Part shown: in pieces, positions 1-6,000 of the stretch | Position numbering within the stretch: position 1 is the stretch's first letter | Layout: every line of letters starts with the position of its first letter | Origin: an uncultured Verrucomicrobiae bacterium | GTDB lineage: Bacteria; Verrucomicrobiota; Verrucomicrobiia; Chthoniobacterales; UBA10450 | Length of the DNA: 64,000 nucleotides | NCBI GenBank assembly: GCA_963756875.1 | Contig: CAVWPA010000003.1 | Coordinates: forward strand, 1,696,001 to 1,760,000 | Reading direction: 5' to 3' | Program-made: the position numbers

Positions 1-3000
1 TGGATAAGCGCCAGTTTTCCTATGTGGCAGGCCCGCTCGACGCCGGCTTCTATGTAAACTTTGTCTTTCACTGCGATCCGCAGCTGATCGCCAAGCTCCA
101 GGCAAAATTCAAGCTCGATCCCGAAGTGTATCGGCAGCATTACCAGCGACTGCGCCAGAAGAAAGAGAAGAAGGAAAAGCCTGCGAAAAAGTTGGCGAGA
201 GCCAAGTGATTTGATTATAACCGGCCCATGGCGAGCTTTAATAAAGTCATTCTTCTTGGAAATCTCACGCGCGACCCGGAGGTGCGCTACACACCGAAAG
301 GCAGCGCGGTTTGCGATCTCGGTATTGCTGTAAACCGGCAATACACGCTCGATAGCGGCGAGAAGCGTGAAGAAGTCACTTACGTCGATGTTGTTCTGTG
401 GGCGCGCCTGGCGGAGATCGCCGGCGAATATTTAAAGAAGGGTCGGCCTATTTTTATAGAAGGCCGGCTGCAAATGGACACCTGGGACGATAAGCAGACC
501 GGACAGAAGCGAAGTAAACTCCGCGTGATCGGCGAAACCATGCAATTGCTCGGGAGCCGTCCTCAGGGGGCTGCGGGTGCCGATTCCGAAGGCGGGGGAG
601 GGACGCGGCCTCAAAAAGCGGCGGCGCCACCGCCGCCCAAATCGTCCGGGACCGCCGAGCCGGACGACGACGAGATCCCGTTTTGATTGTGGCATCGGCA
701 TCTTGCCGATGGTCCGAGCGGACGGGCGCTGCTGCGTGGGTTGGCCTCCGGCTTGTAGGAGCCTGCGGCTCGGAGAGAAGCCCATGCCACTGTCTTTGAA
801 TGAACGCGACCGAAGCTTGCATCGCGCTAAACATGCTGCCGACAGTCGGACCGGTGCGGCTGCGGAAACTGCTTCAGGTTTTCAAGGAGCCGCCGCAAAT
901 CCTGTCCGCTAAACGCACTGAGCTGCGCAGAGTTGAGGGAATTGGAAACGAAGTCGCAGATCAAATTTCCAACTGGGAATCAATCGTCGATCTACCAGCC
1001 GAATTGGAACGAATTCGCGATTTCGGCGCGACAGTGATCACCCAGCAATCGCCCTCCTATCCCGCGTCGTTACGTGAAATTCATGCGCCGCCGATCGTCC
1101 TGTATGTCTGGGGCGAACTACAGGAACGCGATCAGCACGCCATCGGCATCATCGGCTCAAGGCGGACGACGCATTACGGGGCGGAATCGGCCAAGAAACT
1201 GGCTTATCAGCTTGCCTACGCGGGATTGACGGTGATCAGCGGCCTGGCGCGCGGAATTGATACGGCTGCCCACCAGGGGGCGCTGGCTGCAAAAGGAAGA
1301 ACGATCGCCGTAATCGGCTCGGGGCTGTTGAAATTATATCCGCCGGAGAATCGCGGCCTCGCGGAAAAAATTTGCAACGGCAACGGCGCGGTTGTGTCTG
1401 AGTTCTCGATGGAGATCGAACCGGACCGTCAAACCTTTCCGATGCGCAACCGAATTATTTCGGGTTGGAGTCACGGCGTGCTTGTTGTCGAGGCGGGCCT
1501 GAATAGCGGTGCGCTCATCACCGCCTCTCAGGCGCTGGAGCAAGGCCGCTCGGTTTACGCGGTCCCCGGTCACATTAACGCGCCGAGCGCGATGGGATCC
1601 AACCGGCTCATCCAGCAGGGCGCCAAGCTGGTCATGGACGCGAGCGATATTCTCGACGATCTGCAGATTTTGTTACCCGACGCAAAACCTTCACCTCAGG
1701 CTGCCGTGCGGCCCTTGCCGCCGCTCTCGGAGGAAGAGCGGCGAGTCTATGACGCAATCGAGGCGGCGGAAACGCCGATCGATCAGATCGCCGCGAAATG
1801 CGATTTGCCAAGCGCGACGGTCTCTTCTACTCTCCTGCGCCTCGAGCTGAGGCGGCTCGTCAAGCAGTTGCCCGGAAAATATTTCGTGAAACTGTCTTAA
1901 GCTCGTCCGCGATCTGCTCTCAGCGTTCGCAAGGCGTTCATTTTCAAATGTCTAAATCGTTAATCATCGCGGAGAAGCCAAGCGTAGCGAGTGACCTCGC
2001 TCGCGCCCTCGGCGGTTTTAAGAAGGAAGGCGATCATTTCGAAAATGACCGCTACATCATCTCCTCGGCGGTCGGGCATCTGGTCGAACTCTGTTTGCCC
2101 AGCGAGCTCGATGTTAAAAGGGGCAAGTGGAGCTTCGCGAATCTCCCAATCATTCCGGACGTGTTTGAACTGAGGCCGATCGACAAGAAGACATCCAGAC
2201 AGAGTCCGGAGCAGAGGCTCAAAATGCTTCTTCGTCTGGCGCGGCGGCCGGACGTAACCGACCTGATCAACGCTTGTGATGCCGGCCGCGAGGGCGAACT
2301 GATTTTTAAGAACATCACCAAATACGGGAAAATCAATAAGCCCGTTCGGCGCCTCTGGTTGCAGTCGATGACGAAGGAATCGATTCTTTCAGGCTTCGAA
2401 AATCTTCGCCGGGACGAGGAAATGATTCCGCTGTCCCAGGCAGCGGTCTGCCGTTCCGAAAGCGATTGGCTGGTCGGGATCAATGGCACCCGCGCCATGA
2501 CCGCTTTTAATAATAAGACGGGCGGCTTTCAATTGACGCCGGTCGGCCGCGTGCAAACGCCGACGCTTGCCATTCTTTCGGAGCGGGAAGAGAAGATCCA
2601 CGAGTTCGCGCCGCGCCCCTATTTTGAAGTCTTTGCCGATTTCGAGGTAAAATCGGGAACCTATCGCGGGCGATGGTTTCGCGAAGATTTCGCCAAGAAC
2701 AGTGATGAAGATGCGCGGGCGGAGCGCATCTGGGACAAGGCGTCGGCGCAAGAAATCCGCGATCGTTGCCTTGGGAAGTCCGGCATTGCTACAGAAGAGC
2801 GCAAACCGACTACGCAAGCGCCGCCTTTGCTCTACGACCTGACCAGTTTACAGCGCGAAGCGAACGGTCGCTATCATCTCAGTGCGCGCCGCACCCTCCA
2901 AATCGCACAGGCCCTTTACGAGAAGCACAAGGTGCTCACTTATCCGCGCACGGATTCGCGTTATCTCCCGGAGGACAATCTCGGGCAGGTGCGCAAAGTC

Positions 3001-6000
3001 ATGTCGAGCTTTCAAGACCCGACCTTGGCCGGTCACGCCGAAAAAGCGTTGCGCAACGATTGGGTGAAACCGACCAAGCGTGTTTTTAACAACGCCAAAG
3101 TAAGCGACCACCATGCCATCATCCCGACTGGAGCTTCCGCCAGCCACCTGGACGAGTTTGAGCGCAAGATCTTTGACATGGTCGCGCGCCGCACCATTGC
3201 CGTTTTCTATCCCGCCGCGCAGTTTGAAGTAACGACCCGTATCACCCGCGTCGAGGGCCAGCCGTTCCGGACCGATGGAAAAATCATTGTCGATCCCGGC
3301 TGGCAGGCCGTCTATGGCAAGGGATCGACGGGGAATGACGACGAAAAAGCGATCGTGCCTATTTCCCCTAACGAATCGGCCAAGGTTATTGATTTGGAGA
3401 TTAAGGACAACGAGACGAAACCGCCGGCGCGCTTCAACGAAGCCACCCTGCTCTCCGCCATGGAAGGCGCAGGCAAACTCGTGGAGGATGAAGAACTGCG
3501 CGATGCCATGCGCGAGAAAGGCCTTGGAACTCCTGCCACGCGCGCCGCCATCATCGAAGGCCTGATTGCGCAGGATTATATTCTTCGCCAGGGTCGCGAT
3601 CTGATCGCCACCGCCAAGGGGCTCGCCCTCATCACGCTGCTGCGCGGTATTGGTATATCCGAGCTTTGTTCGCCGGAGATGACGGGCGAATGGGAATACA
3701 AACTCAAGCGCATGGCCAAAGGCGACATGGAGCGCAATGAGTTCATGAAGGGAATAAGGAAGTTCACACGCGAGATCGTCGAGAAAGCGAAGAATTTCGA
3801 GGGCGATAATGTCGGTGGTAATTTCGAAGTTCTGGACGTCACGTGTCCCAAGTGCGGCGCGGGCCCCTTCGATGAGGATTACCGCACCTTCAAATGCCGA
3901 TCGTGCGGCCTAATGATTTGGAAGACAATGGCCGGGCGGCTGTTTGAACGCTCGGAGATAGAGAAGCTCCTGCAAGAGAGGCGCATCGGTCCGCTGGAAG
4001 GTTTTCGCAGTAAAATGGGCCGCAAATTCGCGGCACCGGTAAAGCTGGGTGAAGACTTCAAACAGGAATTCGATTTCGGTGAAAACGGTCATGATGCGCC
4101 GGTCCAAATCGATGCGGCAAAACATGAGTCGCTCGGAACGTGTCCGATTTGCCACAAGGGGCAGGTCTACGTGCTCGATCGGGCTTACGCGTGCGAAAAC
4201 GCTGTTTCTGCCGCAAAGACTTGCACCTTTCGCATCAGCAAAACCATTCTGCATCGTGAAATTCCGAAAGAACAGGTGCAAAAGTTGATCGCGACCGGCA
4301 AGACCGATCTCCTTCCAAAGTTCGTGTCAAAAAAAGGCCGGCCGTTCTCCGCTCACTTGAAATTGGAAAATGGCAAGGTCGGGTTCGAGTTTGCCGAAAG
4401 AAAGCCGCGTGGAAAAAAGCAGGGTGGGAAATCCGTGGCAGCGGCTGCGTGACCGCACCTTGCGAGAGATCCTCCTCTCCCTGAGGGCGAGGACTGAGGT
4501 GAGGGCTCGCGCTTCGGATCCAGCGAACAATTGCGGTCGTAATTGAGCCGGCAAAATCTCCTCTGGAATTGATTGACGCCACAAGGTGTAGTGTGATACT
4601 TACTCGAGTACCACTATGCGTTGCCCCAAGTGCGGGTCTCGTGACGATAAGGTCATCGATTCACGCCAATCTCGGGATAGTTCCAGTATCCGGCGCCGTC
4701 GCGAATGCATCAGCTGCGGTTATCGCTTTACTACCTACGAGGAGATCGAGCGCTCCGACCTGCGCGTGGTGAAGCGCGACCGAACCCACGAGCCGTTTGA
4801 TCGGCGCAAACTGGCGAGCAGCATCGCCAAGGCTTTTGAAAAACGCGCGGTCAGTTTGGTTACGCTGGAACAGGTCGTCGATGAAATCGTGCATGAATTG
4901 GAGACCGGCGGGCGCGAGATTTCATCGTCGCAAATCGGCACCAAGGTGCTGGAGAAGTTGCGCGAGATCGACGAGGTAGCCTATTTGCGTTACGCGTCGG
5001 TGCATCGGCACTTTGCGGATGTCGACGAATTTGTTGATGCCATTCACGCGCTGGGCCGTCGAGTAAAGACCAATGCGGCGCAGCGGGAGCTTTTTCCGCC
5101 GGAGCAGAGCGGGCAGGGCCAGGTGGATCCCGTATCTGCGGGCCGGCACGAGGTCGTAAACAAAAACCATGGTAGCGTTTAAGGAAGAGTTCCCATATCT
5201 GCGCTGCGATTCCGGGCAGCTTTTCGAATTCAATCGCGATTGGCTGCATGCGGCGATTACACGCGCTGCCGACAAAGCCGGTTATCCGAGCTGGTGGCTG
5301 ACGGACCACGTAACGGAAAGCATCGCTTTCTATTTGCGGCTGCGAAACGACGAGAACGTGGTCGCGTTCAGTCAACTCGCACAAACGGTGCAATACGTCC
5401 TGAAAGTGATCGGCTACAAGGAAATCGTTCCCTATTTCACACCGGCGCCTCCGCCGATTTCGATTTCGTTACTCGATATCGCGCATGAAGCCGGCATGGG
5501 TTATGAGCTCGCTTTTTTCGATTTGTTGGAAAAGCGGATCCAGGCGCTGCTGGAAACCGGTGTCGATAATTTAAAGCTTTGTTCTCTGCAAACATGTGTG
5601 AAACATCTGCGCAGCGTTAAAGTTTGGACCCGCACATGCGATTCTTTACGCGAAGAAATTGTCTGCTTTATTCGTGAACGCCTGACTTCGACCAGCAGCG
5701 AACGGTTGAAATGTTCCCTGCGGTGATCTTTGGTAGCTGATATTCGATCTCCGATTGCCATGACCATCTTTGAAAAGATCATCGCGCGCGAAATTCCGGC
5801 AAAAATTATTTGGGAAGACGATGACGCCATTGCCTTTCACGACGTCAATCCGCAGGCGCCTGTGCATGTTCTCATTGTTCCCAAGCGCGCCATTCCGCGG
5901 CTGAGCGCAGCGAAACAGGCGGACGCGGCAGCTTTGGGCAAACTGCTCGTTGTCGCCGGGGATCTCGCGAAAAAACTTGGCATCGACAAAAGTGGTTACC

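Follow-up and report, generated by a model that had tools for sequence, protein, structure and literature searches.

Which enzyme relaxes negative supercoils in a bacterium whose sole type IA topoisomerase is a topoisomerase III (Topo III)? The question is raised by a gene standing behind dprA in a window of 64,000 nucleotides, position 1 of which is contig position 1696001, from the genome (here G000, 87.6% complete) of a verrucomicrobial soil bacterium. Passages of reviews published from 2009 to 2024 (PMC2647321, PMC7140829, PMC8191776, PMC10969213) place topoisomerase I (TopA) in all bacteria and treat Topo III as an optional extra.

The type IA topoisomerase of G000 is a Topo III

The gene order at the locus is ssb-dprA-topo-nrdR (Table 1), with 47 bp between the end of dprA and the Topo III open reading frame. 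This agrees with an earlier note on this DNA, which had placed a Topo III directly behind dprA and regarded it as the only type IA enzyme of the genome; tblastn of the whole G000 assembly indeed revealed no second type IA gene. The encoded protein has the features of a type IA enzyme, namely a Toprim domain, a PF01131 core and the catalytic tyrosine Tyr332. The NF006032 model (PRK08173, Topo III) matches it over its full length with 1235 bits (cut-off 1058) and TIGR01056 with 551 (cut-off 515.75), and TIGR01051 (topA) scores 187.8, under its cut-off of 456.4. A sequence search of the PDB gave 302 bits to E. coli Topo III, 94 to E. coli Topo I and 79 to human Topo III-alpha.

A lysine after the first Toprim glutamate and a proline after the catalytic tyrosine are listed as marks of Topo III in a section of PMC10969213. 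All 65 Topo III rows carry both, none of the 27 TopA rows carries either, and in G000 they appear as Glu9-Lys10 and Tyr332-Pro333. In a core tree of 92 bacterial rows (FastTree; archaeal and eukaryotic rows were left out), the G000 enzyme groups with E. coli TopB and not with TopA, with a split support of 100, so that the class assignment, for which the earlier note had no tree, is now backed by both tree and sequence signatures. All trees reported here are FastTree or quick IQ-TREE reconstructions (LG+G4, no mixture model, no bootstrap) of chosen rows. Window positions 1948 to 4452 encode a PRK08173-type Topo III with an intact core, which belongs to a bacterial/plasmid subfamily; human Topo III is far more distant from it than E. 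coli TopB is.

The decatenation loop, present in every Topo III row of the core alignment, gives the G000 enzyme 16 residues more than TopA and is net acidic (+4/-7, versus +5/-3 in E. coli TopB). The C-terminal tail contains four cysteine pairs (aa 633, 650, 732 and 749), each Toprim_Crpt unit consists of a helix and a beta-hairpin, and AlphaFold pLDDT values for the tail are 87 and 96. PF13342 was the only C-terminal repeat detected in the enzyme, with no match to PF01396 or PF13368. Fold searches with the whole tail and with one unit (Foldseek and VIA-align wide) brought up nothing that reached E<=0.001 or Z>=5; the best structural scores were Z 4.6 to Elf1 and Z 2.2 to the zinc ribbon of E. 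coli Topo I, and for solved C-terminal domains of TopA the values were Z 2.2 with rmsd 1.9 over 33 residues (9GDA) and Foldseek E 0.4 (4RUL). It does not follow from these searches that the fold is new, nor that it is a different one. Because no solved structure matches the tail, its binding of DNA or RNA polymerase is a conjecture.

Table 1. Features of the window that bear on the topoisomerase set of G000
Feature	Position	Strand	Evidence
ssb, single-stranded DNA-binding protein; flanks the slot on its 5' side	228..686	+	TIGR00621 146.5 bits, over cut-off
dprA; TopA or Topo III stands behind it	800..1900	+	TIGR00732 252.9 bits; adjacency tallies
DNA topoisomerase III, PRK08173 subfamily, 834 aa; sole type IA enzyme of G000	1948..4452	+	
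Toprim domain, aa 5-137	1960..2358	+	PF01751
Glu9, then Topo III-specific Lys10, within Toprim	1972..1977	+	alignment rows
Catalytic Tyr332, then Topo III-specific Pro333	2941..2946	+	alignment rows
Decatenation-loop insertion, ~aa 507-523	3466..3516	+	core alignment; PDB alignment
C-terminal tail: C4 zinc ribbon + Toprim_Crpt, twice in a row, then basic end	3811..4449	+	PF13342, two matches
nrdR; flanks the slot on its 3' side in the family of G000	4616..5182	+	TIGR00244 171.3 bits
gyrA, only GyrA/ParC-family gene of G000; two GyrA-boxes	18477..21083	-	
gyrB, only GyrB/ParE-family gene of G000	21185..23770	-	

No genome searched in the class has both TopA and Topo III

Among 301 Verrucomicrobiia genomes, related ones among them not being independent samples, 272 had Topo III (at E<=1e-150; the NF006032 cut-off was exceeded in 175 of the 301), 27 had TopA, two had neither and none had both. 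All 27 TopA holders were devoid of Topo III, all nine TopA-less genomes of family f61 (family and genome numbers are ours) carried it, and TIGR01051 exceeded its cut-off in none of 61 genomes of the family to which G000 belongs. TopA and PRK08173-type Topo III are mutually exclusive across the class, and the share of TopA holders is near the 5 of 41 from which the earlier note had concluded that most Verrucomicrobiia searched are without TopA. A shorter, second Topo III subfamily coexists with TopA in nine of ten two-copy genomes of other classes, and the exclusion is therefore specific to the subfamily of the G000 enzyme.

In the TopA-bearing families both enzymes occupy the same slot behind dprA and exchange even inside genera. 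Within families f55, f61, f80 and f90, dprA lies directly upstream of 25 of 25 TopA genes and 8 of 8 Topo III genes; it does so at 27 of 30 named loci. Elsewhere in the class the arrangement is not general (at least 12 of 39 other loci), and at TopA loci of other classes, where flanks are short, it was seen in 14 of 42. Near relatives by GyrA can show opposite states (G284/G273 and G337/G399), and a GyrA tree of 48 rows requires at least seven changes between TopA and Topo III, a single clade of TopA holders being rejected on it (p-AU 0.0002). Family f17 falls among the TopA-bearing lineages by GyrA yet has only Topo III, and its Topo III gene is nested in the clade of the class with SH-aLRT 99, although the alternative is not rejected (p-AU 0.07). 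A 1401-aa open frame in G301 is no DprA fusion, dprA lying upstream in another frame.

The Topo III proteins of f61 consist of the core and one Toprim_Crpt and end in two to three TopA-type zinc ribbons, with PF01396 or PF13368 matches. These TopA-derived ribbons are ~70% identical to local TopA tails, the two enzyme types being ~23% identical to each other.

Gyrase is the only type II topoisomerase found in G000

The G000 gyrA is broken by frameshifts into four pieces in the assembly, with three extra bases (~20175, 20416 and 20776), each at a GATC; reads over the frameshifts came from two distant runs only (0.10 and 0.05 of words), and the absence of a base at 20174 from a single 151-base contig is too weak to count. 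The product has the two GyrA-boxes that the earlier note had described, as well as six PF03989 beta-propeller repeats, as in a gyrase.

That note had also reported no Topo IV. This is borne out for the family, where no ParC-like gene was found among 60 relatives, and for part of the order, but not for the class, in which 49 of 66 genomes carry a second GyrA/ParC-family gene; the absence of Topo IV is therefore lineage-specific. Second PF00521 matches in G217 and G258 proved to be halves of one frameshifted gene, and that of G257 reflects two GyrA copies that are 89% identical. Many GyrA proteins of the class have an insertion of ~23 aa in the PF00521 domain (matches of 1389 versus ~1320 nt). 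Topo VI as a hidden decatenase was rejected, PF04406 being detected in 0 of 25 genomes of the order, G000 included, and in 6 of 67 chosen genomes overall; no search was aimed at Topo VIII or mini-A. No Topo IB, ParC or Topo VI-A was found in six single-contig genomes (G090, G114, G132, G292, G301 and G374), and the whole topoisomerase kit is Topo III plus gyrase in these relatives and in G000 as assembled.

Proposed role of Topo III and alternative explanations

We propose, with a probability of about 70%, that this Topo III took over the relaxation of negative supercoils from TopA, a function suggested by the gene exclusion and the shared slot. The enzyme would nick one strand of underwound DNA and let the other strand pass through, and the negative supercoils generated by gyrase and transcription would thereby be relaxed, with the help of the zinc-ribbon/Toprim_Crpt tail and with the decatenation loop retained. 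In this proposal a PRK08173-type Topo III displaced TopA in the Verrucomicrobiia and moved into its position behind dprA. A further possibility, to which we give slightly less than even odds, is that the enzyme is a convergent TopA, a dual relaxase-decatenase by virtue of its tail, such that Topo III and gyrase suffice, and that the dprA slot is a cassette with exchangeable content, where TopA, chimeras of Topo III with a TopA tail and no fewer than three distant Topo III alleles swap in place. Counting against a relaxing role, E. coli Topo III is a weak relaxer; in favour of it, a passage of PMC8191776 names the short tail of the E. coli enzyme as a proposed cause of its slow relaxation.

It is unlikely, in our view, that Topo III is mainly a decatenase like E. 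coli TopB and that TopA was lost because excess negative supercoiling is handled by other means: gyrase might be weak or might relax DNA without ATP, Topo IV or Topo IB might act in genomes that have them, and RNase H might deal with R-loops. The conserved decatenation loop and the frequent second GyrA/ParC-family gene would be compatible with this explanation, as would the PF00521 insertion and the rescue of topA nulls, both in E. coli and in B. subtilis, by mutations in gyrase or by additional Topo IV, which part of PMC7140829 describes. However, it leaves unexplained why none of the 301 genomes combines this Topo III with TopA although TopA does occur beside the other Topo III subfamily, why both enzymes use one common slot and why f61 Topo III carries TopA zinc ribbons, and no further enzyme able to relax DNA is present in the six single-contig genomes.

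Far less probable is a eukaryote-like pair, in which relaxation would have passed from TopA to Topo IB, with Topo III acting as decatenase. The earlier note had seen such a set here, on the grounds that Topo IB is common in the family, and it had failed to find the gene in G000. Both observations stand: Topo IB occurs in 53 of 60 family relatives, and none was found in G000, even at the DUF1844/mlaD position where four relatives have it. A primer table for Acidovorax also lists Burkholderia-type Topo III and Topo IB among six topoisomerase genes, with no omega-type Topo I among them (PMC6274382). The set itself is contradicted at the level of the class, given that Topo IB occurred in only 11 of 66 class genomes, in none of four genomes from other families of the order in that sample and in one of ten near-closed genomes tested. 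Moreover, the enzyme of the relatives is the short bacterial type (372 aa, PF21338), which is poxvirus-like and distinct from the eukaryotic enzyme according to a passage of PMC2647321. Topo IB may help relaxation within the family of G000.

Finally, it is hardly credible that TopA was overlooked in incomplete assemblies or that a divergent TopA was misnamed by the HMMs: although G000 is incomplete and two genomes of the class gave no match to any type IA enzyme, TopA is absent from single-contig genomes of the class as well, the same search detects it in 127 of the 134 genomes examined from other classes of the phylum, and there is a clean separation of the two types by the tree split and by three sequence signatures.

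The general pattern is that of Topo III replacing TopA; Topo IB and Topo IV are optional additions. A class of abundant soil and gut bacteria, most of whose members have no TopA, departs from the rule of the reviews, and inhibitors directed at Topo I may miss these members. The natural chimeras and the two-enzyme genomes now allow a test of which part of a type IA enzyme (core, decatenation loop or tail) sets relaxers apart from decatenases; if the enzyme is a convergent TopA, they would amount to a domain-swap experiment made by nature on the features that turn such an enzyme into a relaxer.

Comparison with known systems

Our searches, which did not cover subscription papers, found no literature on TopA loss in Verrucomicrobia and none that characterises the PRK08173 subfamily or its replacing TopA. 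Earlier phylogenomic surveys are reportedly those of Forterre in 2007 and Garnier in 2018. The subfamily is named 'DNA topoisomerase III, Burkholderia type' in Table 1 of PMC6274382, and it shares with the G000 enzyme the core and the Toprim_Crpt tail; class-wide TopA loss, TopA exclusion and TopA-tailed chimeras are what the Verrucomicrobiia add. The nearest branch outside the class consists of plasmid homologues of Betaproteobacteria (45% identical; plasmid records), and the few named distant homologues among 20 representatives were from Akkermansia glycaniphila, Burkholderia ambifaria, Cupriavidus and Puniceicoccales. Burkholderia is probably a candidate precedent for TopA replacement: a 'DNA topoisomerase III', known by this product name from transposon screens, is in the essential-gene list of B. 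thailandensis (PMC3561365 Table S1) and is essential in B. cenocepacia although that species has Topo IV (PMC4993015). In B. pseudomallei the orthologue appears among the non-essential genes, which counts against replacement.

With E. coli TopB (TIGR01056; PDB 1D6M) the G000 enzyme shares the Toprim lysine, the Tyr-Pro pair and the decatenation-loop insertion, the cores being 31% identical. In contrast to TopB, an accessory decatenase beside TopA with a tail of ~33 aa (PMC9369019), it is the sole type IA enzyme, its loop is acidic and its zinc-ribbon/Toprim_Crpt tail is 210 aa long. With TopA (omega protein) it has in common the slot behind dprA, repeated C-terminal zinc-binding domains and, as proposed here, the cellular job, but it is only ~24% identical to TopA and differs in its Topo III signatures and in a tail of PF13342 instead of PF01396, the f61 chimeras excepted. 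The eukaryotic Topo III and Topo IB set shares with the present one the family names alone, since both enzymes are here of bacterial types, Topo IB is optional and gyrase is present. The kit of TopA and gyrase in M. tuberculosis and C. trachomatis, as outlined in part of PMC10969213, likewise has two enzymes and no Topo IV; its type IA member is Topo I, and the G000-type kit, with Topo III, is its mirror image.

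Distribution of TopA and Topo III

TopA and Topo III were never found together in the 301 genomes of the class Verrucomicrobiia, and only two of these had neither enzyme. TopA was detected in 27 of the 301, so its absence from most of the class, proposed in the earlier note, is real and wider than first reported. NF006032, the PRK08173 Topo III model, matched at E<=1e-150 in 272/301 genomes, a count to be read as Topo III and not as the subfamily because B. subtilis and Bacteroides controls match at this threshold as well; the subfamily cut-off itself was passed by 175 of the 301. 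In a phylum-wide sample, where 200 of 201 genomes had a type IA match, the topA model TIGR01051 exceeded its cut-off in 0/67 genomes of the class versus 127/134 of other classes, the seven exceptions being three contig-end fragments, one matchless genome and three genomes of family f17.

Within the class, TopA was limited to families f55 (6/6), f61 (19/28), f80 and f90; all 27 TopA-bearing genomes were without Topo III, and the remaining nine f61 genomes carried it. No TopA was found among the 61 genomes of the family of G000, the genome under study (G202, G207 and G214, counted in the own-family tallies, are marked as unpublished, and no claim depends on them alone). There is a second, shorter Topo III subfamily with 36-38% identity to the enzyme of G000. 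It occurs freely alongside either TopA or the PRK08173-type enzyme, which points to the PRK08173-type Topo III as the TopA equivalent. One genome (G394, locus L222) carries four Topo III matches, two of them full-length at about 690 aa; the one full Topo III placed in a tree groups with E. coli TopB, on long branches.

The Topo III of G000

The G000 protein passed the cut-offs of both Topo III models (NF006032, 1235 versus 1058; TIGR01056, 551 versus 515.75) and lay far below that of TIGR01051 (187.8 versus 456.4). Against solved structures it scored 302 bits with E. coli Topo III, 94 with Topo I and 79 with human Topo III-alpha. The two residues described as Topo III signatures in the relevant part of PMC10969213, a Lys following the first Toprim Glu and a Pro following the catalytic Tyr, are present in G000, and in our alignment both occur in 65/65 Topo III rows and 0/27 TopA rows; a decatenation-loop insertion, acidic in G000, is common to all Topo III rows. 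A core tree of 92 rows places the G000 protein with E. coli TopB, and the split from TopA has a support of 100. Chromosomal Topo III genes of the class formed one group beside two betaproteobacterial plasmid enzymes (SH-aLRT 95; 45 chosen rows), a support that was lost in a 46-row tree with different rows. A tblastn search of the whole assembly revealed no second type IA gene, confirming Topo III as the sole such enzyme of G000, whose named relatives belong to the Chthoniobacterales/Spartobacteria. The offset of 1664000 used earlier was 32000 too low and is corrected to 1696000 (window start at contig position 1696001).

Features of the window and of related loci
Feature	Position	Strand	Remarks
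Topo III gene	window 1948-4452	+	834 aa; gene order ssb-dprA-topoisomerase-nrdR
185-aa ORF	window 5169-5726	+	overlaps nrdR end; conserved in relatives; no Pfam or NCBIfam match
3-hydroxyanthranilate dioxygenase, amidohydrolase, cyclase and tryptophan 2,3-dioxygenase families	window 8838-12214		clustered; looks like kynurenine pathway
gyrA	window 18477-21083	-	single extra bases at ~20175, ~20416 and ~20776, each at GATC
f61 Topo III/TopA-tail chimeras	L251-L255, L229, L243, L246, L248
Type IIA A-subunit of genome G309	L371:996-2369		458 aa; 25-27% identical to GyrA; lacks a C-terminal domain; may derive from a mobile element

Changes between the two enzymes

Where an f55, f61, f80 or f90 locus has 600 or more bases of upstream sequence, dprA directly precedes the topoisomerase gene (25/25 TopA, 8/8 Topo III); elsewhere in the class this adjacency is frequently broken (adjacent in at least 12/39 loci). 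Both states are represented within each of two genera (g167 and g200), and a 48-row GyrA tree requires at least seven TopA/Topo III changes and rejects the TopA holders of the class as one clade (p-AU 0.0002). Given that the TopA-bearing families branch close to the class base, either both enzymes were ancestral in the class and were differentially lost, or TopA was ancestral and was replaced several times.

In the family of G000 the Topo III genes are likewise rejected as one clade (p-AU 0.0004), and eight long alleles, chosen by length, lie near native ssb and dprA but belong to other clades (six f7-like, two f61-like). Long three-repeat alleles are common there, since about 23/59 matches have open frames of at least 929 aa. 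At least three distant alleles occupy the dprA slot of this family (L363-L370 and L285, in G216, G201, G239, G225, G236, G205, G259, G203 and G220).

In f61 the Topo III is chimeric: a Topo III core and one Toprim_Crpt domain (PF13342) are followed by two to three PF01396 zinc ribbons, which are about 70% identical to the tails of the local TopA and are taken from it. Family f17 falls among TopA lineages by GyrA, yet has Topo III only, nested among sequences of the class (SH-aLRT 99), with an alternative placement not rejected (p-AU 0.07). This family, from another class of the phylum (L261, L264, L349-L351), has a single GyrA, and Topo VI-A in 3/3 genomes.

Other topoisomerases

The gyrase genes of G000 are a single gyrB and a single gyrA, the latter with two GyrA-boxes. 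Because all three extra bases in gyrA lie at GATC and the other tested G000 genes contain no frameshifts, they probably reflect miscalled bases at a methylated motif. Relatives G217 and G258 have gyrA breaks at similar places. The suggested lack of Topo IV holds for the family, with no ParC-like gene among 60 relatives (PF00521 match in 54/60), and fails for the class, where 49/66 genomes have two PF00521 genes; a ParC-like gene occurs in 7/27 further genomes of the order.

Topo IB is present in 53/60 family relatives, in only 11/66 class genomes and was not found in G000, and the eukaryote-like pairing of Topo III with Topo IB should be dropped. The DUF1844/mlaD interval, the Topo IB site in four relatives, spans merely 157 bases in G000; with the G000 genome 87.6% complete and the position of the gene variable among family members, its loss is likely, not proven. 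Topo VI-A was found in 6/67 chosen genomes, none from the order. Six single-contig genomes (G090, G114, G132, G292, G301 and G374) have Topo III and one gyrase only.

G257 has two full GyrA copies (L372, L373; 89% identical, both with GyrA-boxes), reflecting either duplication or a binning mix. In the order of G000 and several others the PF00521 match is about 1389 nt long, whereas it measures about 1320 nt for f6/f7, for f61 and for other classes; the difference corresponds to a GyrA insertion of about 23 aa in the longer forms.

Proposed role

As described in sections of PMC7140829 and PMC8191776, TopA offsets the negative supercoils driven by gyrase and transcription. Topo III can also offset them, though less effectively, and one proposed reason is that the E. 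coli enzyme has a short tail. Where TopA, Topo IB and Topo IV are all missing, the PRK08173-type Topo III would have to be the main relaxer. The core is intact in G000, and the exclusion between Topo III and TopA is at gene level. AlphaFold models each tail unit with confidence as a C4 zinc ribbon, helix and beta-hairpin (pLDDT 96 for a single unit and 87 for the pair), fold searches giving no clearly matching solved structure. The tail would probably provide single-strand binding, as does that of TopA. Functional replacement of TopA by this enzyme appears probable (about 0.7).

Comparison with known systems

Omega-type Topo I is stated to be present in all bacteria in passages of PMC2647321, PMC7140829, PMC8191776 and PMC10969213, and Topo III is treated as an additional enzyme in part of PMC9369019. 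Our literature search yielded no publication describing a loss of TopA in Verrucomicrobia, with the proviso that one may exist among subscription papers or in bioRxiv supplements. The PRK08173 subfamily is already known to annotators (NF006032; Burkholderia-type label). In Verrucomicrobiia a known enzyme family seems to serve in a new role, against the textbook rule of a universal Topo I.

In Burkholderia, Table S1 of PMC3561365 places the "DNA topoisomerase III" BTH_I0125 on the essential list of B. thailandensis, and the lists of PMC4993015 give BCAL0462, their sole COG0550 gene, as essential in B. cenocepacia, as are parC/parE, and its B. pseudomallei orthologue as non-essential. We infer that all three belong to the PRK08173 subfamily; the support that the essential-gene lists would lend to a TopA-equivalent reading is indirect. 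A primer table in PMC6274382 lists a "DNA topoisomerase III, Burkholderia type" and gives the name topA to a Topo IB, so the Burkholderiales are likely a second case in which TopA was replaced by a PRK08173-type Topo III.
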